From a virus, in IMG/VR virus record IMGVR_UViG_3300025108_004499: 64,000 nucleotides of DNA. One strand, written 5' to 3'. Position 1 is the stretch's first letter; each line of letters begins with the position of its first letter. Positions 1-64,000 of this stretch are shown here, in pieces. Both the position numbers and the translations under genes were made by a program. Under the pieces are notes generated by a model. That model saw only the letters and a program-made list of their open reading frames with translations, was not told where the DNA came from and did not search any database.

Positions 1-82
1 CAGGACGTTTTTTCTTGAAAGCTCGCATAATGCTTTTTTTAGCGCCATTGGGCGAAACAGTACGTAGTGCAGTATTTTCCAT
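1..82 (-). CDS. 5' end of a gene running off the window, possibly a MoxR/AAA-type ATPase
   Basis: ATG at 82 with GAGGAA SD; reads MENTALRTVSPNGAKKSIMRAFKKKRP, resembling the segment before Walker A in phage MoxR-like ATPases; Walker A itself is outside the window. Confidence 0.45.
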   Translation of the reverse strand, partial: MENTALRTVSPNGAKKSIMRAFKKKRP

Positions 83-138
83 ATTATATTCCTCTTCTAT
101 TGTTATCAGTGCCATACTTTATTTCTAAGTATGTATAT

Positions 139-167
139 ATAATACACTAAGTTATGCCAGAAGTCAA
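139..167 (-). promoter_or_regulatory. sigma70-type promoter
   Basis: TTGACT-17 nt-TATTAT on minus strand upstream of the gene starting at 82. Confidence 0.8.
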
Positions 168-200
168 CCACTTTTGGACGTTTTTTACAATTTATTTTTT

Positions 201-345
201 TCGTACCATTTAATAGAACCTATGCGACAGACACCTTAAATGTACGATTTTCACGTCTAAATGGCTCTTAAACTGCGTTTAACGTTTTTCTGGGGTGTTT
301 GTATGTATTAGACTATAAGACCGTTATAAGAGCATTTAATGACGT
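201..345. repeat. two imperfect inverted repeats in the intergenic region
   Basis: TCGTACCATTTAA(201-213)/TTAAATGTACGA(236-247); ACGTCTAAATGGCTCTTAAAC(253-273)/GTTATAAGAGCATTTAATGACGT(323-345). Confidence 0.6.
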
Positions 346-346
346 T

Positions 347-1050: not shown

Positions 1051-1079
1051 CTTTTTTTATTAGAAAACTACCACTATAA

Positions 1080-3082: not shown

Positions 3083-3466
3083 TTATTTAACTTCAGCTTT
3101 ACCATTATCGTCTGCTTTACTAGTATTGATATACCCCATACCGCGATTAGGTTCTTGACCTTCTTCATCTAAAACTTGTGTAGCAATAGTTCTAAACCAT
3201 TGATCTATAATCTGTTCTGGTTCTTCACCTTGATATCCTGCATCAATAAGTTGTTCAATAAACTCGTTATTCCAATCGAGCTCAAAGAACCCGTTCTTAA
3301 TGTTATCTGGATTCACTTGTGTATCTAGTACTGCTACCCAAGGCTTTTTATCTTTAGTTGCTTGTGCTTTTTCTTTTTCAAGAATAGCTCTGCGTTCTTC
3401 TTCTGCAGAAAGTACTTTTACTTTTTCGGGTTTCATACCCAATGCTTTTTTTACTTTATCTAACAT
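3083..3466 (-). CDS. hypothetical phage protein
   Basis: 127 aa ORF (GFFELDWN.EF). Confidence 0.75.
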   Translation of the reverse strand: MLDKVKKALGMKPEKVKVLSAEEERRAILEKEKAQATKDKKPWVAVLDTQVNPDNIKNGFFELDWNNEFIEQLIDAGYQGEEPEQIIDQWFRTIATQVLDEEGQEPNRGMGYINTSKADDNGKAEVK

Positions 3467-3551
3467 ATATCACCATCCTGCCTTTCTTATTTTATCTTCG
3501 TTAATAGGCGCCTTCATCGCCCTTTCGTGTTGCTTGTTCTTGTATTTTGCA

Positions 3552-4460
3552 TCAAGTGCCCCACGCATTTCCGAAGAGTGAAATGTGTAGTCTGGGGGTA
3601 AATCTCCACCCTTCGGCCATACACGCTTCAGCCACGTCTTTAACGTTGAGGGCATATTCTTCACTGCGTCCGCCCAACGGCATAAGATATACTGGACATT
3701 CCAACCCGGCACCTCTGTAAGCTTCAACAGCTCTTTTGACTTCATCAAAGTCACCTTGAGTAGCGACAACAAACTTAAGATACATGTCGCTGTCAGTAAC
3801 AAGCTGATACTCACTAGCCACGTCAGGCTTAATAGCAGTATCCCAAGGTTCTCCGCTAACGCTAAGTTTCGGGGAACAAGACCAAGTGACTTGGATTCTA
3901 TCTTGATCATTAAGATAGTTAAAGAAATCTTCGTGTAAATGTTGTGTAGTGTTTGTTTCAAATGTAACATTTTTTAAATCCTTCATACGTGGATGTTCAA
4001 ATAAATCAATGTAGAGCCTTTGCCACGCTAATAACGGCTCACCACCTGTTAAGATAAGGTGAACATCTTGTCCATTATCTTGTACCCATTTACCATTAGG
4101 AGTAAGTGATAGTAAATGTTCAACAACAGCATCAACACCTGCTAGTTTATTAAAATGTTTAAACTCTGGATAGATACTTGCATATGTATCACAGCCTGTA
4201 TGTATGATAGGCAAGTCGTTAAACTCTTTTGTAGTTTCGTGTACACCTTGGTTAATAAGTTCCATTACTTCTGCGTTATGTTTCTTACCTGCTTTATGTT
4301 GTTCCCAACGGTCACGTTTTTCATCTGTACCAAAGTTCATGCAACGAAAGTTACAACCAAATGTACGTAAGAATACACTAGGTACTCCTACAAATTTGCC
4401 TTCACCTTGTACACTATAAAATGCTTCTGAATATCTTAATTGTTTTTCTTTACTTTCCAC
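3552..4460 (-). CDS. queE: 7-carboxy-7-deazaguanine synthase (radical SAM)
   Basis: EAFYSVQGEG, FLRTFGCNFRC...GCDT with insertion, LTGGEP, ETN, SPKL, RLH motifs; start set at GTG 4460 with GGAG SD. Confidence 0.93.
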   Translation of the reverse strand: MESKEKQLRYSEAFYSVQGEGKFVGVPSVFLRTFGCNFRCMNFGTDEKRDRWEQHKAGKKHNAEVMELINQGVHETTKEFNDLPIIHTGCDTYASIYPEFKHFNKLAGVDAVVEHLLSLTPNGKWVQDNGQDVHLILTGGEPLLAWQRLYIDLFEHPRMKDLKNVTFETNTTQHLHEDFFNYLNDQDRIQVTWSCSPKLSVSGEPWDTAIKPDVASEYQLVTDSDMYLKFVVATQGDFDEVKRAVEAYRGAGLECPVYLMPLGGRSEEYALNVKDVAEACMAEGWRFTPRLHISLFGNAWGT

Positions 4461-5139
4461 AAGCAAACTCCTGTTGCAGTTTAATGTTATCCATAAACTC
4501 TTTTTTAGTACCTGCGTCATCTTTAAACGCACCTTTGAGTACAGTTGTTTGTGTAAGACTACTATGTGCCTTAACACCTCTGTTCTCTACACAACCATGC
4601 GTTGCTTGTACATAAACACCTAAGTGTTCTGCATCTGTTGCTTTTTGTATTTCGCGAGCAATATCATTTGCAAGTTCTTCTTGCAATGTACCACGTTCAG
4701 CACACCATTGTGCAATACGGGTGTATTTACTTAGTCCAATTAATTTGTCTGCGGCAATAATACCAATGTATGCAACACCTTTTACAATCTGATGATGATG
4801 CGAACACATACTTGTAAGTTCACTTCTAACAACTAACATACCTTCATAACGATCCATACTGTCATTTGGAAATGCTGTCGCTTTTGGAATTGGATCATAA
4901 CGTCCTGCCATTAATTCATTAATATACATCTTTGCTAGACGTTTACCAGTTCCCATACTATTAGGATCATTATGCCTGTCAATTACGAGTGAGTCTAGTA
5001 CACTCTCAAAGGCTACAGTTGCTTCGTCAATTAGTGCTTCTTTGTCGCCTTCTAATAAAACGTCACTGATGTTGTCACCAGCCCAAGATCTAATGCCAGC
5101 CTCTTCTAACCTTGCTTTAATTTCTTCACTTTTGTTCAT
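4450..5139 (-). CDS. folE: GTP cyclohydrolase I
   Basis: SMCSHH, GLSK..R, LQEE, H.C...RGV motifs. Confidence 0.95.
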   Translation of the reverse strand: MNKSEEIKARLEEAGIRSWAGDNISDVLLEGDKEALIDEATVAFESVLDSLVIDRHNDPNSMGTGKRLAKMYINELMAGRYDPIPKATAFPNDSMDRYEGMLVVRSELTSMCSHHHQIVKGVAYIGIIAADKLIGLSKYTRIAQWCAERGTLQEELANDIAREIQKATDAEHLGVYVQATHGCVENRGVKAHSSLTQTTVLKGAFKDDAGTKKEFMDNIKLQQEFACGK

Positions 5140-6221: not shown

Positions 6222-6567
6222 AAGTTCCTTTCCTGTAGTTTCCTTGTTTAGGTATTACGTGTCGTACGCCGCCGCGTGGATCATCCATATCGCCTTTGCG
6301 CCTAGGAATTAAGTGAACGTGTGGATAGTTAACAGTTTGTCCTGCCGCTTCTCCAACGTTTTGTCCGATGTTGAACGCATCACAGTATCCACGTTCAACC
6401 CAATCATAGCCCCATTTATATGCGGCCTCCATACATTTTGTTAGTCCTCTCCAGTCTTCTTGTTTAGGCACAAAAAGAATGTGTCCTTCAGTAACCGGAT
6501 AGCCATCTTTGTATACTGTAAAGTCTTTTGACTCAATTAGTACATCTGTCCAAGGTTTAGAATCCAT
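6199..6567 (-). CDS. HIT-family nucleotide hydrolase
   Basis: D.YPV..GH.L, G..AGQTV..PHVHLIPR; the first His position of the HxHxH triad reads Pro. Confidence 0.85.
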   Translation of the reverse strand: MDSKPWTDVLIESKDFTVYKDGYPVTEGHILFVPKQEDWRGLTKCMEAAYKWGYDWVERGYCDAFNIGQNVGEAAGQTVNYPHVHLIPRRKGDMDDPRGGVRHVIPKQGNYRKGTYVETAND

Positions 6568-7138
6568 AATTAAATGCCACCATTATACGTTCTTTATCTG
6601 TAAGTTGTTGTTCAACTTTATGATGCAAATGACTTGGAAAGATAATTAAACTTCCTGTCATTGCCGCACAAGTTACATTAGGAGAGTTTGCTTCATTTAG
6701 TTCTGAAACATTTACTCTCGGCCAGTTAGCTTTCATATTAGGATTAACAAGTGTTAGTCCTGGATGATCTTGATCTGCTTGAATATAGTATACTCCACTC
6801 CATGTGTCTGGAAGATGATTATGTTCTTCGTGGTAAGTGTACTTACGATTAATACTAAACCAACTGCTCTTAAGTGAAGGCGTATGTTGTAGTTTAGTTT
6901 CTTTATGACACTCTTTTACACTTGCATCAATAAAGTTTTTTAAATCTTCAAACAACGGATGTTCTAAAATACTTTCACTGCCGTATGATGTATATCCGTT
7001 AGCAGTATATCTTATAGGAGATTTATCTGTTTTTTCTTTTGCTAAAAGCTCTTTAACTACAGACTTTTGTAGCTCTTGAGCTTTGTCGTATACAGCTCTA
7101 AATACTTGTGTTGGAAATATAAACTGCTTCTCAATCAT
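6557..7138 (-). CDS. 2OG-Fe(II) oxygenase-like protein
   Basis: W...N....HxH....SGVYY, IFPS.L.H.V, R...AFN; start at ATG 7138 (TAATG overlap). Confidence 0.8.
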   Translation of the reverse strand: MIEKQFIFPTQVFRAVYDKAQELQKSVVKELLAKEKTDKSPIRYTANGYTSYGSESILEHPLFEDLKNFIDASVKECHKETKLQHTPSLKSSWFSINRKYTYHEEHNHLPDTWSGVYYIQADQDHPGLTLVNPNMKANWPRVNVSELNEANSPNVTCAAMTGSLIIFPSHLHHKVEQQLTDKERIMVAFNYGF

Positions 7139-7683
7139 TAATATTCTCCAACGTGTTCCCAAGGATAAACTAACCAAACATCTTCTTCTGCTTTATTTAC
7201 TTCGTGGCAACTATAGGATATTGTACTATTGAAATCACTTGCTAAATTATCGGTTAGTGTAGCAAAGCGAACATTGTTACCAAACACATTATTCCATTTA
7301 GGATCATCAGGCAAACACCCTTGTTTCCAGTCTTGCATAATCCAATTAAACGTAGCACCAGTATCGTTAATATCATCTACAATAAGAATTTTCTTTTCTA
7401 ATGGCCCTGCTGTTACTTTTGTACCATCGTTGTATCCATATGCATCTTCTGCCATCCATAACATACTATCGCCAGTCTTACCTGACTCTCCATCACGTAA
7501 ACTTACTTTAAGTGCTTCACAACGTATACCTGTGATGTTACTAATAATAGTAGCAGGTACATTACCACCACGTGTAATACCTACAATGTAATCAGGCTTC
7601 CAATTGTCAGCGTACATTTGATTTACAATACTAACGCACATACGTTCTACGTCTTGCCAGTTGTAATAGTGTTTTTTAATCAT
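7138..7683 (-). CDS. type I phosphoribosyltransferase (Gpt/purine PRTase-like)
   Basis: IVGITRGG.VPA, PRPP loop ILIVDDINDTGAT, C-terminal W.VYPWE. Confidence 0.88.
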   Translation of the reverse strand: MIKKHYYNWQDVERMCVSIVNQMYADNWKPDYIVGITRGGNVPATIISNITGIRCEALKVSLRDGESGKTGDSMLWMAEDAYGYNDGTKVTAGPLEKKILIVDDINDTGATFNWIMQDWKQGCLPDDPKWNNVFGNNVRFATLTDNLASDFNSTISYSCHEVNKAEEDVWLVYPWEHVGEY

Positions 7684-11153: not shown

Positions 11154-12686
11154 TTATACCTCCGTAAATAAATTTGAAAAGCCTGTATTTGCATTTACAG
11201 TCTTTTTACCTACTGCTCCTCTAGTGCCAATAATTGACATCCAGAATTTACTATATTCTTCTATGATTGCTTCTGCTTCGTCTCTGTTTGAAGTTGCAAA
11301 TATTGCTTCCACAACATCTTTAAAATATAGCCTGTCGAATTGTTCCTCCACAAGCATTGCCGGAACATTTCCATTGTCGTATTGTCTGTTTGCTTCTTGT
11401 ACTGCATTAACATGACTCCATACGTTGTGACCCATTTGTATAGCATAACTAAAACTATCCCAACTAGTTGAGTCACGTTTACGAATAATTTGATTACCGT
11501 CTTCGTCTAGTATAGGATTACCATGTTTGTCTCTATCAATTTCTCCTGCTAAAATTTTAGGACCACCAACTTTGTTAGTGTCACCAGGAGCATATATACA
11601 AACATCGTTTACTTTAATATTTTTAGTCAAAGGACTATCAGTAAAGTTTTTAAATATTCCATCTGCTAGTACACCATCTCTAAAGTTACGTGTATCAGTT
11701 GCGTACTTTAATTCATCAATACTTGGAACCATTCTGTAGACCCATTTAGTTCTATCTTCAGTTTCAGTTTGAATGTAAATTTGTCCATTTGCTGTAGCAA
11801 GGAAAGGAGAAGCACAATCAAATGTAATTGTAAAGTTTGGATTATGATACTTACGTACTGCTCTTTGTATATCAGTTAGTAGTGTAGCCCATTCTAGTTT
11901 GCTTGTTCCTAGAAAGTGCATAAAGTCATGTTTACCTTGTTCAAGTAATCCATCAAAACGTAATGCTACAATACGTTTAAGAACTAAGTGTATATCACAC
12001 ATGTTCTGTCCACCCATCGACCATCCGTTAAAGTGATTCTCATACTTTGCAGGATCACAATAGTCTTTCATCTGTTGATACCAATCTTCAGCATCAGCAT
12101 GATTCTCACCTTGTAATACATTTAAGAACTTACAAGCACCTGTTCTGTGTTTCATAAAGTAGTCGTTGTTAATACGTGTAGCATTAACAGCCTCTTGATA
12201 TGTACTAATACCTGTTGCTTTTGCACCAGCAGGTGAACGTGCCACCCAAGCCGGAATATCAAGTATCATACCATAGTCCATATAAGCATCCATCCACGCA
12301 AGTACTTGCTCACGTTTCTTTTGTGCTTTAGGACAATTAGGATCTTTCCAATCGCCTTCCCAAACACCTTTACCAATTTGGAAGCCACCTGAGTCACCTA
12401 ACAACCAACTGTTCTCACGATCACGTTCTCTAACCATAAGTTCTTTTGGAGCATCTTTATTGATATCTAATTCAGCATGTCCTGCTGAGTACAGAGTCCA
12501 ATGATAGTTAAACATTCCTTCTTTTTTGTTTAACCAATTCATACTTTCCATACTAGGATAAGGAATACGACTTTCTTCAACATATTCTTCACGCCTTTGC
12601 TTACCTACAAATGTTGCGTAGAATCCACTTAGAGCTGGAAGAAATATTGCATAGTCTTTTTGTGCTGTTGTTAAGTCAGTATTCAA
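11154..12686 (-). CDS. dpdA: DNA guanine transglycosylase (TGT superfamily, DpdA-type)
   Basis: DSGGFQ, ILDIP, VLQG, GWSMGG, HFLG, TFDCASP, HN motifs; no CxCxxC Zn site of bacterial tRNA TGT; start set at TTG 12686 with AGGAG SD. Confidence 0.85.
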   Translation of the reverse strand: MNTDLTTAQKDYAIFLPALSGFYATFVGKQRREEYVEESRIPYPSMESMNWLNKKEGMFNYHWTLYSAGHAELDINKDAPKELMVRERDRENSWLLGDSGGFQIGKGVWEGDWKDPNCPKAQKKREQVLAWMDAYMDYGMILDIPAWVARSPAGAKATGISTYQEAVNATRINNDYFMKHRTGACKFLNVLQGENHADAEDWYQQMKDYCDPAKYENHFNGWSMGGQNMCDIHLVLKRIVALRFDGLLEQGKHDFMHFLGTSKLEWATLLTDIQRAVRKYHNPNFTITFDCASPFLATANGQIYIQTETEDRTKWVYRMVPSIDELKYATDTRNFRDGVLADGIFKNFTDSPLTKNIKVNDVCIYAPGDTNKVGGPKILAGEIDRDKHGNPILDEDGNQIIRKRDSTSWDSFSYAIQMGHNVWSHVNAVQEANRQYDNGNVPAMLVEEQFDRLYFKDVVEAIFATSNRDEAEAIIEEYSKFWMSIIGTRGAVGKKTVNANTGFSNLFTEV

Positions 12687-13899: not shown

Positions 13900-14609
13900 T
13901 TCTTAAAGCCTTGTTCTTTTAAAAATCCATCTACTGTATATTTAGGTCTAAAGCCTAACTTATCCATCAAATGTGTATTTGCCTGTGTTTTTGTTCTTTC
14001 GCCAATAGTATTTAACTTTACTGGCAAATCAGGTCTTATGTCCTGGATCCTTACACATTCTCCAGTACCAATGTCAATATTACCTGTTAGGTCTTTGTCC
14101 ATTAATAACATAATACCATCTGTTAAATCTTCTAAATGTATAAAATCTCTTAGATGATTTGTTGTGTATTCTAATGTATTGTTAAGCAATTTATCAAAGA
14201 ACATTTTAGCTCTTGGACTTTCGCTGTACACTGTATGAAATCTCATAAACAATGCATTAGGGTGTGGAATGTTTTCAATTACATTCTTACTTGCGGCATA
14301 TGGATTAAGATGTGGTTCGTACTGTGAACTTGATCCTGCTACTAATACTCGAACATTATCGTAGAACTCAAGTATACGTTTTGTTCCTTCTACATTAGTG
14401 TCCCAATACTTTTTAGGATCAGCAAGACTTTCTCTTACGCCGCCAATGCCTGCTAAGTGTATTACAAAATCTACCTTAGGTAGTTCTGAGGTTAATATAT
14501 TAGTACCTTCTTTAATATCTATACCGACAACATCATGTCCATCTACAACTAACTTTTCTTTTAGTCTTGATCCGATGAAACCTAGATGCCCTGTAATTAG
14601 TATCTTCAT
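13896..14609 (-). CDS. NAD-dependent epimerase/dehydratase
   Basis: ITGHLGFIG Rossmann motif, YAASK, RDFIH..D. Confidence 0.9.
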   Translation of the reverse strand: MKILITGHLGFIGSRLKEKLVVDGHDVVGIDIKEGTNILTSELPKVDFVIHLAGIGGVRESLADPKKYWDTNVEGTKRILEFYDNVRVLVAGSSSQYEPHLNPYAASKNVIENIPHPNALFMRFHTVYSESPRAKMFFDKLLNNTLEYTTNHLRDFIHLEDLTDGIMLLMDKDLTGNIDIGTGECVRIQDIRPDLPVKLNTIGERTKTQANTHLMDKLGFRPKYTVDGFLKEQGFKK

Positions 14610-15361
14610 GTTTCTTTCCTTTTGTTCTTATTGCTTGTTACAGCAGTTGATAATATTGGTAGTGTGGCGCCAATTACATTTGCTGAATACAGCAATGCTT
14701 CTGTATCTTTTGGAAAGCATGCTCCTCCAAAACCTTTGTCGCCATCTGGACCTGGAACTTGCATATGACTATGTGTAATTCTTTTGTCCTCACCTACCAA
14801 TGCTTTAACTTGATTATAATCTATTCCTGCTGATTCGCATAGATCAAATACTTCGTTAAAGAAAGCAACCTTGGTTGCTAAAAAACTATTGCGTAAATAT
14901 TTTGTTAATATTAATTCTTCTACCGTAGCATAGATTGGATTGAATCCTTTACATAAAATAAACACATCATTCCAAAACTCTACATTACCTCCACCAAATA
15001 ACATTGTTGTTTGATTTTTAAAGTCTTCGTTTGCATTGGCCGCAGTTAAAAACTCAGGGCTAAATGTAATTTCTTTATTTTGTGGCTTAAGATCTTTGCG
15101 CCACCCTTCTAAACTAATTGTGCTTTTGATTAAAATAGGTTTATCACTTGGACATGCTTTAACTACAGTTTCAACAATAGTCATATTACATGCTCCTGTT
15201 ACTGTAGCAGGTGTTGGAACACAAATAACATAACCGTCGCTATCGTTATCAATAACATTATCGTTATATTCAGGATCAACAATCTTTACTTCATGATAGT
15301 CTTTGAGTACTTCGTACACAGCCTTGCCTACAAAGCCATACCCAATTAAAGTTAGTTTCAT
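14606..15361 (-). CDS. UDP-glucose/GDP-mannose dehydrogenase-like protein lacking the C-terminal domain
   Basis: IGYGFVG, CVPTP, IKST, SPEFL, GFGGACFPKD; only 251 aa. Confidence 0.88.
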   Translation of the reverse strand: MKLTLIGYGFVGKAVYEVLKDYHEVKIVDPEYNDNVIDNDSDGYVICVPTPATVTGACNMTIVETVVKACPSDKPILIKSTISLEGWRKDLKPQNKEITFSPEFLTAANANEDFKNQTTMLFGGGNVEFWNDVFILCKGFNPIYATVEELILTKYLRNSFLATKVAFFNEVFDLCESAGIDYNQVKALVGEDKRITHSHMQVPGPDGDKGFGGACFPKDTEALLYSANVIGATLPILSTAVTSNKNKRKET

Positions 15362-15573
15362 TTAGCCTCCTTCTTTGCTTGCAATTTAGGATGTGGAGTT
15401 TTATCGTTAAAGATATCTCCAGCCATTGCTTGTATTTGTTCTACTAGATGAGTAACTAACTGTTCGTCATACTTCTCACCTGGTGCCTTTTTATATTTTT
15501 CTCTATGTGCTTGAACAGCCATTCCGTGCATTGCACTAACCTTGTCCATTAGTTGTTGTATTGTATGTTGCAT
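15358..15573 (-). CDS. hypothetical protein
   Basis: 71 aa ORF, GGAGG SD, TAATG-coupled to polB. Confidence 0.7.
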   Translation of the reverse strand: MQHTIQQLMDKVSAMHGMAVQAHREKYKKAPGEKYDEQLVTHLVEQIQAMAGDIFNDKTPHPKLQAKKEAK

Positions 15574-18245
15574 TATTCACCTCCAAAGTCAAACAAACTA
15601 TTGAACGTATTGTTCTGTTTAGTGTCTTCTAAATCATAGTTTAGAACACCAATTAGGTTATCTAGTTTGTTATCAATAATAGTTGCTTCCATAGCATCGC
15701 CATCAAATGGCAGTTCTTTGAACCATTCTGGAATACGCAATTCATCTGTAGGGTATGCAACACTTGTGTAACCTAGCGGATTTTGTTTTAGTTTGCATAC
15801 AATAACTTTCATACCGTCAACAATCTCTTGCGAGTACTTGTCACCATTCATACGTTTTAGTGTATTCCAATTAATACTTGCTCTAACATGCCCAGGCATG
15901 TTTGCTTTACCTTGCTTTTCTTCAAGACGTTGATAGTGTCCTACTTTGTTTGCACGTTTAGGTGCACCTTTTTCATAACCTGGACGTAGTTTAAACTCCT
16001 TACGAAATTGTGTAATACGATCTAATACTTTTCTTTCTTCAACATCAGTAAGTACCATAAGCAATAGCTCACTTAAGAACTCCTGCATAAACACAGGTGT
16101 ATCTGATCTACGCAAGTCTAAGCCCATTGCTTTTACTTTGCCTGGTTTACCATCTTCATCTGTTCTAAAGCCTTCGTTATCAATTACTAGTGCCGCATAA
16201 CGCTTCTTAGTAATATACAATCCGCTTTTTGCAACAATTTCTCTACCTGCGGCAATAACGTCTGCACGACTCTTTGGACAATGGAATGCTTGTAGCATAA
16301 AATCTATAAATGTACTGTCAACAGCATCACTTACTTGATCATAAAGTTTGATAGCGTTCTCAGTACTCCAAGGAATGTCTCCTTTATCAATACCTTCTTT
16401 AAGCATTGGGTAAGCACTAAAGTAAACAGAGTCTGTATCACCATATATAACAGCATCACCTACGTGATCATATGTACCTGTAATAACTTTGTTTGCTTCT
16501 GCACTCATATGCTTAACAATAGTACGACCTGACAGTGTTGTTGACTGTCCAATACGTTTGTCAAAGAATCTACAACCAGGATTAAGAATAGCACCATACA
16601 AACTGTTCAAGTTAATCTTTTTAACAAGTTGTCGCTTGTCCCAGTATTCAATCTCTGTAGCATTGCCGGCATCCTTAGCCTTCTTTAACATTGCTTGTAG
16701 TTCTTTACGTTCTGAATACCAACGTTTTAGTAGTCCGGGTATAACACCTTCGTGTTCTGTTGTAAAAATAGTACCGTTTGCACTAAGCATCCAAGGTTGA
16801 TTGCTATCAAATACAAGTTTATAAATCTCTGCACCTGATAATACATCACTTTGTCCGTTCTCCCAGTCAACAGTTAGTGCAGTATCACGTTTCTGTTCCA
16901 TAACTGCTTCATATTCTTCTGTAGCAAAACGTCCTTCCCAACTGCCTGCGAAACTTTTCTTCTTAAGACCCATATCTTCTTTTACACGAGCATCTGAAAC
17001 GTCTGGACGTAGTTGTCCAACAACTGTTGCTGGATCCATATTCAATGCACGAATAACACTAGGATACAGACTGTTCAAGTCCATACTAGCAATCCATTTG
17101 TGCAAGCCTTTTTTTGGAAATGCAACATAAGCACCTGCCGCTTGTGTGTTTTCTTCATCACGGTGCGGACGATTAGGTACTTGCATACCACGTCTGTGTG
17201 CTTCATTAACAATCGCTTGTTCTGTAACTGCGACAGCACCCATAGTGGTCTGTAGCAAAACAGTGTTTGCATGTGCAAGTTCGTTACTTAGATCAATAAA
17301 TCTTAGTTTTTTGTCCAGCTTGTCCAGTAGTGCGGTATCTTGTATGTTGTATTCGATGAACTTTCTAAAGTCATTGTTGTACAACTGGTCCAAAGTGCCT
17401 TCATAAGGGACCTTGTTCTCACCAACTTCGATTTCGCCAATGGCATCAAGTCTATATGTGTGTCTTTCTTCATATGTATATTTACGATATAATTCCAAAC
17501 TATCTAAATGCACTCTGCCTATTAGGTCAAAGGTAACAGCTGATTTACCATACTTTTCATATTCACGTTTCTTAGGAAGTTGACCCCACAAGCAGAATCT
17601 ACGTGTATCATCCTTGCTTAGTACACGGGCAGTTCTGTTTACAGTATACGGAATATCATAACCTTCACTGTTCCAACCTGATAAAATATCAGCGTCTTCA
17701 ATCAGCGTTAAGAAAGTGTCAATCATTTCACTTTCTTTTTCAACTAGCATTACATTATCAATGCCTTCAATTTCTTTTTTAGCCTGCTCCATAGTAAGTG
17801 TCTTAGGCGGCACAGCAATACAGATCATTGTTTCCATCCACTGTAAGTATACAGAGATACTTGTAATAGGCATAAACGGATCTGCAGGATCAGCAAAGCC
17901 ACGCTCTGGATCAAAGTCAGTCTCAATATCAAAGAATGCAATGTTTAGTTTAGGAGCATCTTGATTGAGATAGTTTTCACTCAAACATTGGAATATAGGA
18001 TTAATATCGCTTTCAAACATCTTCTTGCCTTTGTTAATAGCAAGTTCTTTACGAAACTCCTTTGTGTTCTTACACACAATTCTACTAATTGGATCGCCGT
18101 AGATGCTTTTAAATTTACCTCTTTGATCTTCATAATAAAATGTATACTTGATTGGATATTCAGTAAACTTTCTTTTGCCGTCTTTACGTTCTACAACACG
18201 TACAATGTCACTGTCTCTATCAAATAATGCGTCTACGTAACTCAA
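15573..18245 (-). CDS. polB: family B DNA polymerase
   Basis: Exo motifs FDIET, GWNSEGYD, YNIQD; Pol motifs DLNSLYPS, KINLNSLYG, YGDTDS, KKRY; TTG start with GGGAG SD. Confidence 0.97.
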   Translation of the reverse strand: MSYVDALFDRDSDIVRVVERKDGKRKFTEYPIKYTFYYEDQRGKFKSIYGDPISRIVCKNTKEFRKELAINKGKKMFESDINPIFQCLSENYLNQDAPKLNIAFFDIETDFDPERGFADPADPFMPITSISVYLQWMETMICIAVPPKTLTMEQAKKEIEGIDNVMLVEKESEMIDTFLTLIEDADILSGWNSEGYDIPYTVNRTARVLSKDDTRRFCLWGQLPKKREYEKYGKSAVTFDLIGRVHLDSLELYRKYTYEERHTYRLDAIGEIEVGENKVPYEGTLDQLYNNDFRKFIEYNIQDTALLDKLDKKLRFIDLSNELAHANTVLLQTTMGAVAVTEQAIVNEAHRRGMQVPNRPHRDEENTQAAGAYVAFPKKGLHKWIASMDLNSLYPSVIRALNMDPATVVGQLRPDVSDARVKEDMGLKKKSFAGSWEGRFATEEYEAVMEQKRDTALTVDWENGQSDVLSGAEIYKLVFDSNQPWMLSANGTIFTTEHEGVIPGLLKRWYSERKELQAMLKKAKDAGNATEIEYWDKRQLVKKINLNSLYGAILNPGCRFFDKRIGQSTTLSGRTIVKHMSAEANKVITGTYDHVGDAVIYGDTDSVYFSAYPMLKEGIDKGDIPWSTENAIKLYDQVSDAVDSTFIDFMLQAFHCPKSRADVIAAGREIVAKSGLYITKKRYAALVIDNEGFRTDEDGKPGKVKAMGLDLRRSDTPVFMQEFLSELLLMVLTDVEERKVLDRITQFRKEFKLRPGYEKGAPKRANKVGHYQRLEEKQGKANMPGHVRASINWNTLKRMNGDKYSQEIVDGMKVIVCKLKQNPLGYTSVAYPTDELRIPEWFKELPFDGDAMEATIIDNKLDNLIGVLNYDLEDTKQNNTFNSLFDFGGE

Positions 18246-18848
18246 TTAATTCTCCCTGTAAGTAATGTCATTAATGTTTCCTGCTAAAACATATCTTGTT
18301 GTGTTTACAGGATATACTTTATGATGTATGGTACTAGGAAACATGACTACCATATCATTATACACTGGTAAGTTGACTTCGTCAACCGGAAAGATTTCGT
18401 TTTTGGACTCCTGCATTTCAACAAACGTAAGTGGATTGTTACTTTCGCCTACATCTAAGTAGTAAACCCAACTGTAACGACTTAGTGTACCGTGTTCGTG
18501 TTGTGGACAACCTTGTCCGGGTAAGCTCTCTTGGAACCATACTTCTGCATCAATGTTTAATTGACTAGTTTCATGCCAAACTTGATCAGTTATAAACTTA
18601 GGACCCCTTGGACGTACAATATTATGGCAATACCATAAATGTATTTTGTCTAGTAAAGGACTAATTATATCGTGATCAAGATGTATTTCGTGGTTAGTCT
18701 TCCATGACTCAACAGTATATTGTTCTTCCTCTTTTAATTTAAGGAAATAATCAATAATAGGTTTTGTGGTTTGTTTAGTAAAGCCAAGCGGGCCATGTCT
18801 TATGGCGGTCGGCTGAGATATGTATAGTGTACTACAACTTAACTTCAT
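18246..18848 (-). CDS. 2OG-Fe(II) oxygenase-like protein
   Basis: W.......HEH....SWVYY, FPS.I.H.V, R....GN. Confidence 0.7.
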   Translation of the reverse strand: MKLSCSTLYISQPTAIRHGPLGFTKQTTKPIIDYFLKLKEEEQYTVESWKTNHEIHLDHDIISPLLDKIHLWYCHNIVRPRGPKFITDQVWHETSQLNIDAEVWFQESLPGQGCPQHEHGTLSRYSWVYYLDVGESNNPLTFVEMQESKNEIFPVDEVNLPVYNDMVVMFPSTIHHKVYPVNTTRYVLAGNINDITYREN

Positions 18849-25907: not shown

Positions 25908-26270
25908 ATGTTGAAGCACAAACACATGATAATTAGAGCTGAAGTAAGCAATCCACCACAATGCGAGCAAACTATAGTCGATTGGGCTGGTAATTTAATA
26001 AGAGATATAGATATGAAGATAATGATGGGGCCATATGCTAAGTATTGTGAAATGCCGGGCAATAGAGGGTTTACGTGTGTTACTATTATTGAAACAAGTC
26101 ATATAGCAATACACGTTTGGGACGAAACCAGTCCTGCACTAGTACAACTAGATGTATATACATGTGGTGAATTACATAAAGATAAAGTATTTGATGCACT
26201 AGAACGCTGGGATCCAGTTAAAGTTGAATACAAATATTTAGATAGAGAAAAAGAACTTACGTTAGTTTAA
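25908..26270 (+). CDS. speD: pyruvoyl-dependent S-adenosylmethionine decarboxylase family proenzyme
   Basis: G.T....IETSHIAIH.W.E and LDVYTCG motifs; AAGGA SD. Confidence 0.85.
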   Translation: MLKHKHMIIRAEVSNPPQCEQTIVDWAGNLIRDIDMKIMMGPYAKYCEMPGNRGFTCVTIIETSHIAIHVWDETSPALVQLDVYTCGELHKDKVFDALERWDPVKVEYKYLDREKELTLV

Positions 26271-27841
26271 GCTCTTGCGTATTGTGGAGTTGCTTTTTGT
26301 TGATCATCATTCCAAGTTATACCACCTTTGATCATAACATCACCGGCTTCAACTGCTTTTATCAACTCTGCTTGAGTACCAATTAGATAGTAATTCCTAT
26401 TCATAGAGTTTACAAACAATATGTTTTCTACTTCATCTTCTTTATTGTAACTATCATATGCTAGTGCAGAATAGTTAAGTTGAAACTTACTAACGTCGAT
26501 ACTGCCATCAGGTTCTACCATTGCAGAAATTCTTTTCTTCCAATTACTAACTTTTTTCCAACCATTAATAATACTTTTAAATGTTGCATCTAAAAGTTCT
26601 ACAGTGTCTTCAGGTTTGCCGTTTGGAATAAGAACTTCATTGTTTAAAACTTTTAACCCACTAGCATTAAAATTATACCTACTCGAAAGTTTCTTAGATA
26701 CTTTACCTTTTGAAGTCATTACGTTAAATGCACTCATGTAGCCTGGTTCTTTCATTGCACCTTTTTCGTCGTTTGGATTAATTTCTTTTATTTTAGGATT
26801 AATTCTTTTAACTTGTTTATTTAATTCTTGCCAACCAGAAGTACCAGCACCAATTCCTTTTGAATTTAACCTTGCTCCGTATAAACTACCTGGAGTCATT
26901 TGCTTACTATTGTATCCACTTCCTTTTAGTTCAAAGGCAACACCGTCTACTATTAGATCGCCTTTGTCATCTGCTTTTTTAGCAGGGTTACCTAATATTG
27001 CTAAACCTACTTCAGCAGGTCCATAATTTCCTGATGTTGTTCCGCCAGGAATAAACCCAAAGAATGCTGTTTTAATTTCTTCGTCAAATAAGTCTTTTAC
27101 GTCTTGATCTAGATTTTGATTAATATGATCATCAATCTTACCTTTCTTAGCCGCAACTAAACCTTTCATATCAATTACTTGACCTGCAATAGCATAATCT
27201 AAAAACTTATTAATTGTTTCTGGAGAAATATCTCTGTCCTCAACTGTGTTAATAATAGCTGTCATATGATTTAAAATACTTTTTTGTACAGCACTCATAT
27301 TAGTCTTATCTAATTGGCTTTCAGGAGTTAAACCTTCTGCTTTTTTAACAAGTAACTTTAATTTATTTCTTAATTCTCTTTTAAAGGTTTTTAGATCTTT
27401 TATAGTTTGCGTTCTTTCTTCGCCTCTTTCCTGTTTAATTTGTTCAGGAATTGCTTGTTCTAATGCTGAAATATCTTTTTGTAATTTCATAGCATCAGGA
27501 TTTTTACATACGTTTATTGGTTGCCCGCCACACATAGCATCAATGGTTTGCTTTATATTTGCAATAAGCATTTCTATTGGTGAAGTTGCTACAGCAACGT
27601 TTTCTTCAACAGACTCTTCTTTACCTTGATTAGCAAGAAGTTGTTTTGCTTTTTGTTGTAGTTTCTCTAACTGACTCTGAATTTTCTTATATATGCTAGG
27701 ATTTTCTTCTTTAGCATTATCTGCGGCAGTTGCAATGATGTCTAAGTTTTGATCTACATCGTCTTCAACTTTAGTAGGGCTAACAGCAGGTCTTAGAGCC
27801 TGTATTTCATCTTCACTTAATTTAAACTGACCGTAACGCAT
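26267..27841 (-). CDS. coiled-coil protein with putative PD-(D/E)XK nuclease domain
   Basis: GPAEVGLAIL...KGDLIVDGVAFELKG; MRYGQFKLSE start. Confidence 0.5.
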   Translation of the reverse strand: MRYGQFKLSEDEIQALRPAVSPTKVEDDVDQNLDIIATAADNAKEENPSIYKKIQSQLEKLQQKAKQLLANQGKEESVEENVAVATSPIEMLIANIKQTIDAMCGGQPINVCKNPDAMKLQKDISALEQAIPEQIKQERGEERTQTIKDLKTFKRELRNKLKLLVKKAEGLTPESQLDKTNMSAVQKSILNHMTAIINTVEDRDISPETINKFLDYAIAGQVIDMKGLVAAKKGKIDDHINQNLDQDVKDLFDEEIKTAFFGFIPGGTTSGNYGPAEVGLAILGNPAKKADDKGDLIVDGVAFELKGSGYNSKQMTPGSLYGARLNSKGIGAGTSGWQELNKQVKRINPKIKEINPNDEKGAMKEPGYMSAFNVMTSKGKVSKKLSSRYNFNASGLKVLNNEVLIPNGKPEDTVELLDATFKSIINGWKKVSNWKKRISAMVEPDGSIDVSKFQLNYSALAYDSYNKEDEVENILFVNSMNRNYYLIGTQAELIKAVEAGDVMIKGGITWNDDQQKATPQYARA

Positions 27842-42383: not shown

Positions 42384-42412
42384 ATTGTAACATTAACTAT
42401 AGTAAATGTCAA
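42384..42412 (-). promoter_or_regulatory. sigma70 promoter
   Basis: TTGACA-17 nt-TACAAT. Confidence 0.8.
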
Positions 42413-42854
42413 CCATTCCTTTGTAAAATGTATCCAATTCCATCTTAGAACCCATGTCACTTTTAAACTGATTTGCTTTACGGCTTACAATAACATAATT
42501 ACTAATTTCATCTTTTCCTCCCATAGACCTTGCTATTTTATGATCTACAGTAGGCTGAAAGAATCCGTCATAGTTATCAATGTTTGGATTTGTTACTTTA
42601 TTTTTTCCACGTCCGTAGTCTAACGGTGTACCAAAAATAGGACACAAGTCTGGAGCAATTTTTGCAAGCTCAAACGGATCGCCTTCCCACTTAACTGTGT
42701 GAGCCCAAATAAGTTTTAAAAACTGATCTTGCTTTGTAGACTTTTTAAACATTTCAAAAAATGTTGCATATGTACTAGCATCGTCTAAAGAATGAAACTT
42801 ACGTGAGGAGAGAGCCCGAAGGCCCTCTTCTCTAATTTTTATTAAGTCTGCCAT
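42393..42854 (-). CDS. HNH/His-Me endonuclease-like protein
   Basis: CPIFG, TVDHKIA...GG...SN......ANQFK. Confidence 0.7.
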   Translation of the reverse strand: MADLIKIREEGLRALSSRKFHSLDDASTYATFFEMFKKSTKQDQFLKLIWAHTVKWEGDPFELAKIAPDLCPIFGTPLDYGRGKNKVTNPNIDNYDGFFQPTVDHKIARSMGGKDEISNYVIVSRKANQFKSDMGSKMELDTFYKGMVDIYYS

Positions 42855-44309: not shown

Positions 44310-44406
44310 AGTGTGTCTCCTCGACTGTTAAATTATTGGAACGTTTCTATGTTCCCTATTGTACAATAAGCTCATCATTACTGACTTTTTGCTTCATTGT
44401 CTATAC

Positions 44407-44435
44407 AGTATACTATAATATTGTTCTAATGTCAA
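44407..44435 (-). promoter_or_regulatory. sigma70 promoter of the ParB-like/HNH pair
   Basis: TTGACA-17 nt-TATACT. Confidence 0.85.
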
Positions 44436-44443
44436 CAGTTAAT

Positions 44444-45502
44444 TTAACCAAAATCAAATAAACTTGCCGCACTAGGATCTATGTTTGCTTGCGCCATAGT
44501 TCCATAATCAGTTGCTTCATGTACTTCTCGTGGTACAAACAATCTGTCCATGTACTTTTTAATTTGTCTGTGTTTCATGCCAATGTTCTTACCCCAATAC
44601 AAATCTCTTTGTTCTTTGTTCATTGGTCTGCGAACTGCACTTACACATACATAATCACGTTCTGCAAAGAAGTCATATAAGTCTTGTGGTTCGTATCCAA
44701 ACAATGTACATTGCTTAGGCACAATCTCAACTTGTACACTAGGACGACATCTATCGATTGTATCTTTTGCACCTTGCATAACTAATAGCTCACTGCCTTC
44801 AACATCAATCTTGATACAGTCTACATCTTCAAAGTTATAACTGTCAATAGTACGTGCTGGTACAGGTACTAAGTTTTGACTATCACGTAGTTTAACATTA
44901 TCACTATCTAATACAACATGATTATGCCCTCCGTGATCAGTATGATCTAAAATATCAATAGTACCTTCATTACGATTAGTTGCGGCAACTTCATGTACTG
45001 TAATGTTTGCAGTAATGTTCATACTTTGGTGTACACCTTTATGTATGTACCAACCTGCTTTTGCATATTCATCTCGCCACATATCGCCTTCTTGATCTGT
45101 ACCTTTCCAATACACTCCTTTTAGATCTTGATGCTTTGCAATATTAATATTTGCAAGTAACATTTTAAGTGTAGTTGGTGTAGGTTCAAAAGACTCTACA
45201 TTCTCTGCCCATTCTCCATAAGCAATAGTATTATTGCCTACGTTAGCACCAACGTCTATAATACGTTTTGCATTAGGATAAATTGTACGGATTAGTCTTG
45301 AGTTGTTGCCTTGATAATATACGTTGTTTCCGCTAAATCGAGGCCCTTGTAGGTTATCGTGTGCAAGTAACCAGTAACACCGTCCAAACTTGTTTACTAC
45401 AAGCCTAAACAATGGATCACTGTATAGTCCACTTGCTTCCTTAAAATTAAAATTTTCTTCAAATTGTTCTGCTGAGATTTCAGCTGTGATTTTTACTGCC
45501 AT
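44444..45502 (-). CDS. FkbM-family methyltransferase
   Basis: IIDVGANVG, SFEP, IKIDVEGSE..V.QGA..TI..CRP. Confidence 0.88.
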   Translation of the reverse strand: MAVKITAEISAEQFEENFNFKEASGLYSDPLFRLVVNKFGRCYWLLAHDNLQGPRFSGNNVYYQGNNSRLIRTIYPNAKRIIDVGANVGNNTIAYGEWAENVESFEPTPTTLKMLLANINIAKHQDLKGVYWKGTDQEGDMWRDEYAKAGWYIHKGVHQSMNITANITVHEVAATNRNEGTIDILDHTDHGGHNHVVLDSDNVKLRDSQNLVPVPARTIDSYNFEDVDCIKIDVEGSELLVMQGAKDTIDRCRPSVQVEIVPKQCTLFGYEPQDLYDFFAERDYVCVSAVRRPMNKEQRDLYWGKNIGMKHRQIKKYMDRLFVPREVHEATDYGTMAQANIDPSAASLFDFG

Positions 45503-56025: not shown

Positions 56026-56481
56026 TTATAATGCCGCTATTCTAGTTTGGAAGTCTGCAAAGTCAGCACTTGCCGCTACTTCTGCTTTTAATGTTGTTAG
56101 TGTAATTGTCTCTGCTTGTAACGCACTTGCCGCCAATGCACCTTGTGCAGACGTTGCCGCATCTGTGATTCCATAACCTGCTAATGTAGTTGGCTTACTT
56201 GTAAGTGAAGCAAACGTCTGTGCCGGGATAGTTAAGTTTGTTAATGCTGATCCATTTAATGCTGGAAGTGTACCAACTAATACTGCCGCTGTAATTGTTC
56301 CGTTAACAGCATCAACTAGTAACGTACTATCGTCAGCAAATACAGATCCGTTAATATCTCTGTTTTTGTTTGTTACATCTAATTCAGCAAAGTTATCATT
56401 TATCTTTTTAAAAGCTGTTCTTAATGGATCGCCATCACCTTTGTTTACACTAGACCCAATGTTAATTATTTGTATAGCCAT
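56026..56481 (-). CDS. short fibre/structural protein
   Basis: NKGDGDPLRTAF.KIN.NF.EL motif; KPTTLAGYGITDA. Confidence 0.7.
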   Translation of the reverse strand: MAIQIINIGSSVNKGDGDPLRTAFKKINDNFAELDVTNKNRDINGSVFADDSTLLVDAVNGTITAAVLVGTLPALNGSALTNLTIPAQTFASLTSKPTTLAGYGITDAATSAQGALAASALQAETITLTTLKAEVAASADFADFQTRIAAL

Positions 56482-62400: not shown

Positions 62401-63683
62401 TGGTATGCTGATGTATTTTGTGTTGTTGGTCCTACACCAGTAACAAGCGAGATGTTCTTACCGTTATTGTATGTAATTGTTTGTCTATAAGCACCTGGTT
62501 CAATTGGAGCACTTTCAATAACTTCTTCAGCTTTTAATAGTGCGGCTTTTAAACTGCCGTATGCATAACCTAGTCCACGTCCTTCAAGTCCTACTGGAGT
62601 ACGTGCTTGTGTGTCGTCACCTTGTTTAGTTACAAAGATATCTTCTGTTGAACTGTAACTATTGTTGTCGACATATAATTTTGTTGCCGCTTGTTTATCT
62701 TTAACATCACCTGTATCAATACCTGATAAGTCACCTGGATGATCATGCAAGTACAATGCACCTGTCATATCATCACCTTGGCGTCTTACTGTTGCACTTC
62801 TTGGTAGTGTTTCATCTGTTTTGTAGAAGCCGTAATATGAATCATCGTATGCTGTGTCTCTTACAACATCAACACCCGATACTGATGTTTGTGTACCTAG
62901 TGCAATGTTTATCTTAACACGAGTAGTATCGTTATTGTTTTGTGCTTCTGCTTTAGATGCATGTAGACTTAGTTGATCTTCGTTTACCCATCTTACATAG
63001 TAATCTGTATTAGTTGTTAAACCGTTTGGTGCTGAACCTGTAGTTGAGTATTTCCATTTGGTTCCGTTAATACTCCAGTCAAACCCGTGATCACTAACTA
63101 CAATATTACCTGCTCTATATTCTGCAATAGTTTTTGTATATTCGTTTGCGTTTGCAGGTTCTGCTCTAGCATAAACAGGCTTGGTTGGTTCAAATGTTGT
63201 GTTTGGTGCATAGTATTGATCTTGGAATTTTTTATCTGTAACAATATCATTAATTGTAATAGCACTACCATGTGTAGTATTAAATTCTGCAATAGCTTGA
63301 GGTGATGTAGCAATTTTACCAATTGGATAAACTTGGTTACCGCTTAAAGGTCCACCTAGTATCGGACTTGTATCAGCGTTAATATTAGCACCTGTGTTAG
63401 TAATTGTAATATTAGTTGCACTTGAGTTGTCAATACTAATACCTGTTCCTGCCGAAAGCGTTTTAGCTAGGATTTCAGTACCTGTTGTATTACCAATTAA
63501 TACGCCGCCTGGTGTAATGCCTGCTGGTGTGTCATTGAGTGCTGTGAAACTAATTGTTCCGCCTTGCCCAAATACAGCATATAGTTCTGTGAAGTTCTCA
63601 TTTGCTTTACGGAACGCTTCACGTATACTATCACCTGTACCGTCGTTACCTTCTACACCTAAATAAATATCTTGTTTTGCCAT
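56481..63683 (-). CDS. giant (2400 aa) tail fibre/spike with C-terminal intramolecular chaperone-like domain
   Basis: NDGTGDSIREAF N-terminus; internal repeats; YADLAENY...ALQGRVPCKV...IGKA C-terminus. Confidence 0.75.
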   Translation of the reverse strand: MAKQDIYLGVEGNDGTGDSIREAFRKANENFTELYAVFGQGGTISFTALNDTPAGITPGGVLIGNTTGTEILAKTLSAGTGISIDNSSATNITITNTGANINADTSPILGGPLSGNQVYPIGKIATSPQAIAEFNTTHGSAITINDIVTDKKFQDQYYAPNTTFEPTKPVYARAEPANANEYTKTIAEYRAGNIVVSDHGFDWSINGTKWKYSTTGSAPNGLTTNTDYYVRWVNEDQLSLHASKAEAQNNNDTTRVKINIALGTQTSVSGVDVVRDTAYDDSYYGFYKTDETLPRSATVRRQGDDMTGALYLHDHPGDLSGIDTGDVKDKQAATKLYVDNNSYSSTEDIFVTKQGDDTQARTPVGLEGRGLGYAYGSLKAALLKAEEVIESAPIEPGAYRQTITYNNGKNISLVTGVGPTTQNTSAYHAQTYLRENKRFIQKAVLDYVNDTFPNLSYNSTSVSNPNAEAILAQNKKFIQEEVTYWINHNVGNAGGAGIWNNFDYSSAKCKRDVGYIVDAWINDLSRGGNIETRRMASSYLAGMTNAVGSAGLGTVDQIAQTNAAIEFARDLVVNNVLSNSAYASKQGTFVVDDQNLSANSFQFYIGRSSYANTYVNGGTVTKADTTVLPVSVFAYDEATGIASITTVGNHGLSATDVVTIAGINVTCTFEGSTVAKVYPESLPQVVTSLACESGTGVNDVANRASTLTSVITDVISNGLTSLVAPEKPAIVDNTCERDVGLIIDGMIIDIGNGTNSNYNAIQAATRYFSTSSGARARISQGQETRAAMTKAKAIVNSVVQNIDLLTQSKRFAVESDNLATNIFQVDVGTSTVVHTYISGGTVTFGGNTYNISGFNYDNVTGKGIITTTSAHGLGAGDVVVLDAITFECTGYEGTKLYPTDYTTLIPQWFDSNINDVSTQVKDALNAKFDIILDILENGFQARNNYTLVEGSTYTIDFGNGAGNDSTDQGINTNVDILPGKIIVGKTSGARGRIVKYTSGIDLGGVAYDRCEVVLVEPRDFRIGEELEYGNGTKEKQITVHVETGIYYEDYPLKVPANVSIKGSDFRRCQIRPAPRISQSPWVNTYFYRDKLLDNLKITDYTGADLATPQAITISGSNQAGGVITVTPADNIAPTSWDGAWFYTDSGAVGLISNADGGSDFDVTLTTDILPNLSGISSGEWHIKQTVNYGYHYLTDPSNSASTPKLNNQMDVFLMNDATRLANMSFQGHGGFAQVLDPAGQVLVKSPYTQVCGSFSGSVNKQAFRGGMYIDGFSGNLETKITSKDDNYTLNVQSDAGTGLRIRKPQTPAPFFINGVRYQVDAVSEYDGGTGTAKLLINKLSNEGNGYTDTTFPQQIYVQTAGNRSMLANDYTQVNDLGYGLFCNNAALSEQVSTFTYYNHTAFFSNNGSEIRALNCSNANGNFGLVAAGSDPNETVDTITTLRNMQQPAKVFNDETNVYGFGTFAHTAGSFSIFVYDCDYMPYPNSLVDIYTTTGVTTYEVTATSIVTVPTSNIGGYTGATGPTGRKGANRPIYRLSVSGSTGLETAITGAHNPTASNDTSAYAVIRMNKNHLLDDLSGVTATRPSTALIYAENPSQVYRTISFNNQDADGTSLASDRFQVVMDSAFSHLNLTLRNTEAALNTYAGTGTTMGATAGDVVLAIEKLTSTQQARIDNNDMLFSFAGKTHIVANYTDRGSYATVELNDLAASNINSNNGLYTGSGIAADVRFSPAATRTIPLSLQDNEAGTITVGISTLRANGHDFDKIGTGGFNTTNYPSIIYGEPTISANQDAEVNERGKGRVFFASTDQDGFFRVGKFFSVDQGTGTVTFAASIAISNLDGLGFRQGVRIQEFSNDDTMADGDPAAVPTEFATEKFIEKRLHFDRDGVIIATGTIGPGAIARDGTTSITGDINAGSNKIYNHSDPTNPQDVTTKSYVDARTPFDTEAIGADIGNRVNNDILMFHGGLYDNHTVTGDVVFTSNGSNVATAAISSEVIVNGDVSPTAGILQSKLAMQAATTRADATGIAQSDLGLSAFDADDFTVTDGWVTLKASSVDFADLPDIAQNTVFARSATGTGDASAVTFADIVETGGSFTTTGVADRIVKTGADGSIDGQKFKLDNYDILDQTNLTMTMKTPGGATVFDTVGTVPSNTTTTLPGSLQIGSTSVTASFFQQNSSYGDPSDATQNSSRIASDWMYSSFIEAPGEKSTSSTGIGIGAGTGFSSAGEVAIVANNNTAAVVFKQAAMTPATNGGYDIGTGSLSFGTFYGTATAAQYADLAENYLADAEYEAGTVLVFGGENEITTTMYKGDRKVAGVVSTNPAHLMNSDLHGDYVTALALQGRVPCKVIGVVEKGDIIVSSAIPGYGMVQNDPLVGTVIGKAVGTKDGDEPGFVEVVVGRV

Positions 63684-63686
63684 CTT

Positions 63687-64000
63687 TTAAAATCCTACGC
63701 TTTCACCGCAACCACAGCTACTTGTGCTTGCAGGGTTTCTAATATCAAAGTATGAACCGAATAGTTCTTTTTTGTAGTCTATAGTAGACCCTAATAGGTA
63801 CATTACACTCATACTATCTATAATAAACTTACCATTTAGTAAGTCTATAACTTCATCGCCTTCTTCTGCACCATCTGTCATTACCCAATCATACTTAAAT
63901 CCTGCACATCCACCACCTTGCATTTGTAGTTTAATTGCTGTTTTGTCGTTATCTTTGAGTAAATGTGTCATTTGTTCTTTAGCTGAATCAGTTAAAAATA
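63687..64000 (-). CDS. HesB/IscA A-type Fe-S carrier (start probably just outside the window)
   Basis: GGGCAGF.Y, G.TIDY, NP....CGCGES; frame open to the window edge (IFLTDSAKEQ). Confidence 0.92.
   Translation of the reverse strand, partial: FLTDSAKEQMTHLLKDNDKTAIKLQMQGGGCAGFKYDWVMTDGAEEGDEVIDLLNGKFIIDSMSVMYLLGSTIDYKKELFGSYFDIRNPASTSSCGCGESVGF

Follow-up and report, generated by a model that had tools for sequence, protein, structure and literature searches.

Absence of GCWGC from 64 kb of an uncultured marine jumbo phage, and flanking-base rules that suggest a partial guanine modification

The 64,000-nucleotide stretch of viral DNA that we analyzed in full (the window; IMG/VR virus record IMGVR_UViG_3300025108_004499) does not contain a single GCWGC (GCAGC or GCTGC) on either strand. 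The window is about a fifth (~18%) of the genome of a phage from an abundant, uncultured clade of marine jumbo phages, with genomes of ~335–360 kb. Across this clade, whether GCWGC and other short restriction words survive depends on the lineage and on the bases next to the word. We propose that Type II restriction by the hosts purged GCWGC, and that a modification of the guanine in GA and GGC shields other sites. We consider this proposal, taken as a whole, to be probable.

GCWGC is under-represented beyond what base, dinucleotide, or codon composition would produce. Shuffles that preserve dinucleotides give an expectation of 72.2 ± 8.6 copies in the window, and the figure from a maximal-order Markov model is 74.2 (z = -8.6). 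When synonymous codons are permuted inside each of 84 open reading frames (ORFs), which together span 94% of the window, 69.5 ± 3.7 copies are expected, with a minimum of 61. The recoding is plain in alanine codons. None of the 74 alanine codons that precede a codon beginning with GC is GCA or GCT (27 are GCC and 47 are GCG). Elsewhere, 1,237 of 1,340 alanine codons are GCA (791) or GCT (446), and GCC (56) and GCG (47) make up only 8%. In the other two reading frames, AGC or TGC never follows NGC, and CAG or CTG never lies between a codon that ends in G and a codon that begins with C. A preliminary description of this DNA, made by reading the letters, had claimed both the purge and the use of GCG or GCC before GC in a genome that otherwise favors GCA and GCT, and our counts bear it out. 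Its examples are also correct: besides the gene with five alanine pairs in Table 1, the alanines of KAAAV (near 24325) and IAAAI (near 43106) are both encoded by GCC-GCG-GCA. It had also described several other words as common, which is right for GATC, GANTC, and CCWGG (at expectation) and for GCSGC, but GGCC is mildly low (observed/expected ratio, or O/E, of ~0.7). GCSGC is 3–4 times over-represented because it is a by-product of GCWGC recoding.

As the preliminary description had proposed, we compared the window to related phages. We used 80 loci centered on the family B DNA polymerase (PolB) and 80 loci centered on ClpB, with tallies of words in 114 loci that are 12 kb or longer. At the PolB-centered loci, GCWGC varies from 0 copies (versus 22–26 expected) up to the expected number, and the ClpB-centered loci show the same spread of O/E. 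In both sets, the purge is complete, conditional on the flanking bases, or absent. Purged loci are scattered across the PolB tree, and 39 of the 114 loci are purged (O/E ≤ 0.15). At the scale of genomes, a 335-kb relative has 33 copies of GCWGC versus ~424 expected, and a complete 357.6-kb relative has an O/E of ~1.0. In orthologous Ala-Ala columns of PolB, unpurged relatives have GCA or GCT followed by GCN, and purged relatives have GCG or GCC at the first alanine, with both variants present. Purging of GCWGC is a labile trait that is specific to particular lineages.

The GCWGC sites that escape have a distinctive flank. Across 52 depleted loci, all 37 unique residual sites are GGCWGC or GCWGCC, whereas 25.8% of the sites in unpurged loci have this flank (P = 2e-22). 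In the 335-kb relative, unflanked GCWGC is gone (0 versus 325 expected) and a third of the flanked sites remain (33 versus 99 expected; O/E ~0.33). GCGC behaves similarly within the window: all 26 sites carry the flank (GGCGC or GCGCC), and in the comparison with expectation, sites with a 5' G or a 3' C number 24 versus 24.9 expected, and unflanked sites number 0 versus 19.8 expected.

AGCT is halved in the window (103 versus 204 expected), and its survival depends on how near a G in a suitable context lies. With a G at -1, which is then in a GA context, 48 sites are present versus 50.0 expected; with a G at +1 that is followed by a purine, 27 versus 42.9; with such a G only at -2, 5 versus 21.8; and with no such G within 2 nucleotides, 13 versus 92.7. 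Grouped by the immediate flanks alone, WAGCTW has 13 sites versus 80 expected and GAGCT/AGCTC has 49 versus 49. The effect on the 3' side was predicted by the model ahead of the count. There, O/E is 0.77 if AGCT is followed by GA and 0.85 if it is followed by GGC, versus 0.38 for GGD and 0.17 for GY. G002 and G003, combined, have 12 sites with AGCT followed by GGC (9.6 expected) and 11 with AGCT followed by GGD (50.3 expected).

GTGCAC and GGTACC are depleted across the clade, even where GCWGC is normal. Unflanked GTGCAC is absent over most of ~2.8 Mb of sequence from relatives, and the window has three GTGCAC sites, all of them GGTGCAC or GTGCACC. The GGT flank does not rescue this word, however, as the O/E of the flanked form is 0.10–0.17 in large genomes. 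We rejected a simpler protective context, a G before any purine, in favor of GA and GGC because GGT flanks fail at GTGCAC and GGD is weak at AGCT. The depletion of GGTACC, which is absent from the window, is consistent with the narrower rule, as this word contains GGT and neither GA nor GGC.

More broadly, the 114 loci show a purge in some lineage of 9 of the 20 well-sampled palindromes in which every G precedes a pyrimidine, versus 0 of the 13 palindromes that contain a G before a purine (such as GATC, TCGA, GGCC, and GANTC forms). The combination of purged words differs between close relatives. GCGC is purged where GCWGC is normal in three loci (L009, L010, and L017), and the reverse is seen in two (L069 and L008). 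AGCT is absent from about 10 loci, L114–L121 among them. CTAG is absent from L032 (48 expected) and from L112, L114, L117, L118, and L121; in these relatives, the loss of CTAG is stacked on purges of GCWGC, GCGC, and AGCT. Host restriction repertoires that vary would produce such a mosaic. In the window itself, CTAG as a whole is at expectation, and TCTAGA, in which CTAG has a T at -1 on both strands, occurs 5 times versus 21.6 expected, which may reflect avoidance of an XbaI-type enzyme.

Our proposal begins with hosts that would carry a Type II enzyme that cuts GCWGC (of the TseI or ApeKI type, or a BbvI-type enzyme that recognizes GCAGC). Any genome with a site would be cut, so selection would remove every site, nearly always by synonymous changes such as GCA or GCT to GCG or GCC ahead of alanine. 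An enzyme with the fold of tRNA-guanine transglycosylase (TGT) and resembling DpdA would place a derivative of 7-deazaguanine in the DNA, only at the G of GA and GGC. Words with a modified G inside or next to them would be shielded, and would be tolerated in full or in part (GAGCT, GGCGC, and GGCWGC). Words whose guanines are all unshielded (GCWGC, GCGC, AGCT, GTGCAC, and GGTACC) would be erased if the host has the cognate enzyme. A GGC flank on one side would protect GCGC fully and GCWGC partially, as the O/E in the 335-kb relative suggests. Because GCWGC contains neither GA nor GGC, this other defense would miss it, and the purge would be needed. Selection against a restriction site that lies beyond the reach of a guanine modification is the best-supported reading of these data. 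The preliminary description had suggested host restriction that deazaguanine does not block; the recoding, the lineage-specific combinations of purged words, and the GA/GGC flank rules all favor that suggestion, although we infer the agent itself.

The contexts that appear to be protective match those of a known enzyme. The DpdA of phage CAjan inserts preQ0 (dPreQ0) at GA and GGC (PMC7544227). In CAjan DNA, the sites of HaeIII and EcoRV, which contain GGC or GA, are protected, and sites with GC, GT, or GGT are cut (PMC7544227). Phage iggy modifies GA only (PMC10484667). As in CAjan, the contexts that we propose are GA and GGC, not GGT or GY, and a TGT-fold protein is encoded close to FolE and the QueE-like protein. 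Unlike in CAjan or iggy, the TGT-like protein belongs to a divergent family with no match in Pfam or NCBIfam, and its putative modification of DNA is deduced from genome sequence.

The candidate transglycosylase is encoded 2.9 kb from the polymerase gene. Its predicted structure is confident (an AlphaFold2 model with a mean predicted local distance difference test score of 91.3), and Foldseek matches the model to the TGT of Z. mobilis (probability 1.0, E = 3e-7, TM score 0.5), so the model has a TGT fold. It also has the motif D-S-G-G-x-Q: D98, S99, and G101 never vary among 56 diverse homologues, with conservation of at least 90% at G100 and Q103. All five of the large relatives that we checked, whether purged or unpurged, carry the gene. 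In metagenomes, 7,385 of 8,000 candidates from a word-indexed search scored as members of the family, and an exhaustive search gave 962 clusters at 50% identity. A homologue in Pseudomonas phage PA5oct (L227, 222985–224607) is 34% identical and has the same neighborhood of PolB, a QueE-like gene, and an exonuclease, which suggests that cultured phages of the PA5oct type have an unrecognized module for guanine modification. We saw no strong purge in 50 kb of PA5oct, which is uninformative about a shield. The window also encodes GTP cyclohydrolase I (FolE), which is the first step of preQ0 synthesis, and two ORFs that might be QueD, although they match no family.

Several observations weigh against our proposal. 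The TGT-like protein has no sequence match in Pfam, PHROG, NCBIfam, or the PDB, even with profile searches, and it falls outside any recognized subfamily of DpdA. Its homologues in cultured phages (the PA5oct group, Phosso, and a Vibrio phage, identified with tblastn) are annotated as hypothetical. We did not find QueC in the window. The window also has no GGCWGC or GCWGCC, versus 11–12 expected, so no shield by GGC is visible for GCWGC in this particular phage; if a one-sided shield is only partial for this word, that would explain why this lineage lost even the flanked sites. In relatives that lack CTAG the loss is total, and CTAGA is not spared even though its G is in a GA context. The PolB tree overstates how many purges were independent, given that one record (G001) is syntenic with the window and, in many genes other than PolB, closer to it than other long relatives are. 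Our attempt to infer the host from contigs of cellular genomes led only to mis-binned phage contigs, and yielded neither a host nor a restriction-modification system for GCWGC. Finally, our literature searches turned up marine GCWGC methylation in just one case, a metagenome-assembled genome (MAG) from Chloroflexi (PMC8919816).

The flank rule could have another cause even if host restriction did the purging. It might be a property of the enzymes, which would then recognize HGCGCD or HGCWGCD, or the shield might be something other than deazaguanine, such as another base modification or overlapping methylation. The failure to spare CTAGA fits this alternative, the flank rule is after all a pattern in sequences, and the TGT-like protein is not a recognized DpdA, so that its activity on DNA is putative. 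But GCGC, GCWGC, and AGCT are unrelated words and obey one rule (GGC versus GGT, and on the 3' side GA or GGC versus GGD or GY), just as for the DpdA of CAjan. We know of no restriction enzyme that discriminates against a G at -1. Methylation fares no better, as we did not find a C5 DNA methylase in five large relatives. These include the complete unpurged genome, so self-methylation is not what protects the unpurged lineages, and we rejected it as their alternative to purging. Overall, we consider a flank rule of either of these kinds to be unlikely. It is extremely improbable, in our judgement, that no nuclease was involved and that the word was lost by mutational bias (deamination after methylation at GCWGC, for example) or is set aside for one functional signal in another part of the genome. 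We have no specific support for a bias or a signal, although the window is just part of the genome and a rare functional copy could lie outside it. Deamination would yield GTWGC or GCWAC, which in the first frame changes alanine to valine, but the replacements that we see are the synonymous GCG and GCC. Nor would bias yield 0 sites versus 70, as relatives whose PolB proteins are ~86–88% identical maintain an O/E near 1, and in the 335-kb relative the unflanked sites are absent genome-wide (0 of 325) and the flank alone determines which sites remain.

We also considered that the phage might encode a nuclease that cuts GCWGC (for instance, to shred host DNA) and, lacking a partner methylase, might stay safe by having no sites. 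The preliminary description had named two candidates for such self-avoidance: a fast-evolving PD-(D/E)xK-like protein and an HNH endonuclease (Table 1). The core residues of the first (E277, D295, E304, and K306) are invariant in an alignment of four sequences, and it has homologues in the purged contigs G001, L101, L102, and L107. The homologues are 28–54% identical and are scattered over the clade. However, unpurged L103/L109 and L108 also have the gene, as does the complete unpurged genome (G006). Conversely, the purged 335-kb genome lacks it, as do at least 15 purged loci (where the slot is empty, with 19–375 bp), and we did not detect it in L110, the contig that is most closely related to the window (where the slot is ~2.4 kb). 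Since its presence or absence does not track the purge, this gene is neither necessary nor sufficient, and we rejected it as the cause. We rejected the HNH endonuclease as well, because the island that contains it is missing from purged G001 (the only purged relative checked). A nuclease gene could lie outside the window, which is ~18% of a ~350-kb genome, and the purged 335-kb relative has 152 genes that lack a homologue in the unpurged complete genome and that fell outside our screen for nucleases. But the purges are graded (with O/E for AGCT of 0.14–0.6) and the sets of motifs differ between close relatives, which is a better fit to intermittent pressure from hosts. We think that self-avoidance is quite improbable.

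Another gene that caught our attention encodes a 2-oxoglutarate/Fe(II)-dependent (2OG-Fe(II)) oxygenase next to PolB. It is present in 14 loci, all of which are purged of GCWGC, and is missing from all 38 normal loci. We rejected it as the cause because many purged loci lack it and because it belongs to an accessory set that is common to close relatives such as G001. We interpret its distribution as due to shared ancestry or a shared gene pool. The oxygenase travels with a UDP-glucose dehydrogenase and a second oxygenase.

Nearly all of the window's genes are on the minus strand. They include PolB, a ClpB-like ATPase, DnaJ, a clamp loader, PhoH, ThyX, and MazG, along with several 2OG-Fe(II) oxygenases, FolE, and the QueE-like protein. 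With megablast, the window has no DNA-level match to cultured phages. Its PolB is 42–50% identical to polymerases from jumbo phages such as Phosso and Atu_ph07. Over 590 contigs in IMG/VR have a matching polymerase, and the best 80 of these are 86–98% identical. Among related records, the 357.6-kb genome (G006) is complete and unpurged, and the 335-kb contig is purged. G001, a 97.7-kb record, is syntenic over the entire window, and many of its genes other than PolB are closer to the window's than are those of other long relatives. The island that G001 lacks is probably a mobile insertion. The 335-kb contig (PBPT01000016.1, 335,231 bp; L190 and L192–L208) is a near-complete genome from the clade that was binned in a MAG from "Candidatus Neomarinimicrobiota." This binning is probably an artefact and is at best a weak hint about the host. 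A 5-kb phage contig was binned in a Crocinitomicaceae MAG, which we also read as an artefact.

Table 1. Features of the 64-kb window that are discussed in the text.
Position	Strand	Feature	Basis or remark
1..64000	.	GCWGC-free stretch, also without unflanked GCGC, GGTACC, or unflanked GTGCAC; unshielded AGCT depleted ~7-fold	Counts
3083-3466		Possible QueD ORF	No family match
3470-3970		Possible QueD ORF	No family match
3552..4577	-	QueE-like radical SAM protein	Weak matches, far below curated cut-offs
4450..5139	-	GTP cyclohydrolase I (FolE)	PF01227, E = 4.5e-37
6557-7177		Second oxygenase	
11154..12686	-	Candidate transglycosylase, TGT fold, DpdA-like, 510 amino acids	Predicted structure, motif
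14606-15361		UDP-glucose dehydrogenase	
15573..18245	-	Family B DNA polymerase (PolB), marker for collecting relatives	Sequence matches
18246-18848	-	2OG-Fe(II) oxygenase, 200 amino acids	Between PolB and a DUF6552 gene
26267..27841	-	PD-(D/E)xK-like protein, 524 amino acids, fast-evolving	Coiled N-terminal half, conserved core in C-terminal half (GP.E...GDL...E.K)
42393-42854		HNH endonuclease	Within the island below
42393-45502	-	Island: HNH endonuclease, 484-amino-acid ORF of no known family, FkbM-type methyltransferase	Absent from otherwise syntenic G001
56026..56481	-	Illustrative gene: each of its five Ala-Ala pairs is GCG-GCA	Codon reading

Avoidance of restriction sites is a textbook phenomenon, and the bare purge of GCWGC would be ordinary, if unusually clean. 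TseI and ApeKI (GCWGC) and BbvI (GCAGC) are Type II enzymes in REBASE. These systems act on the same word that is purged here, and avoiding GCAGC on both strands amounts to avoiding GCWGC. Unlike those restriction-modification systems, the phage has no matching methylase (as judged from five large relatives), and we located no such system in any candidate host. Several 5-methylcytosine methylases for GCWGC are reported in PMC10734518, and GCWGC methylases or ApeKI are discussed there and in PMC8557920. Rusinov et al. 2018 (PMC6286503) surveyed the avoidance of short palindromes in non-temperate double-stranded DNA phages, and GCWGC is among the sites that they discuss. Like the phages in that survey, the clade studied here shows complete or near-complete loss of orthodox Type II palindromes, synonymous changes, and variation between related phages. 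They saw no avoidance in phages whose cytosines are hydroxymethylated, whereas the purge here coexists with a putative partial base modification and appears to be complementary to it. Survival that is conditional on the flank (GGCGC, GAGCT, or GGCWGC) is not described in that study. Conversely, the reports on CAjan and iggy (PMC7544227 and PMC10484667) do not mention site avoidance. When full texts were searched for deazaguanine in combination with site avoidance, the matches listed were general surveys (judging by their titles). What is new here is the GA rule at AGCT, the contrast between GGC and GGT, and protection that is graded by distance and extends to the 3' side. Also new are the match of these contexts to the published DpdA motif and the assignment, from a predicted structure, of a TGT fold to a conserved gene that lacked an annotation.

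The wider interest is in the exceptions: three restriction words are spared where they touch a G in a GA or GGC context. We are evenly divided on a broader interpretation, namely that the escaped sites are the footprint, legible in sequence alone, of a GA/GGC-specific guanine modification by an unannotated TGT-like family, both across this clade and in jumbo phages of the PA5oct type; that modification and purging are complementary halves of one anti-restriction strategy; and that the modified motifs can be read from genomes. If this is true, it would explain the need for purging in a phage whose DNA is already modified. It would also give a function and a target motif to an unannotated family with over 7,000 metagenomic members, and the DNA-modification motifs of uncultured viruses could be inferred without any DNA in hand. 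And it would reveal restriction specificities (GCWGC, GCGC, AGCT, CTAG, and GTGCAC) that act on a dominant pairing of marine virus and host.

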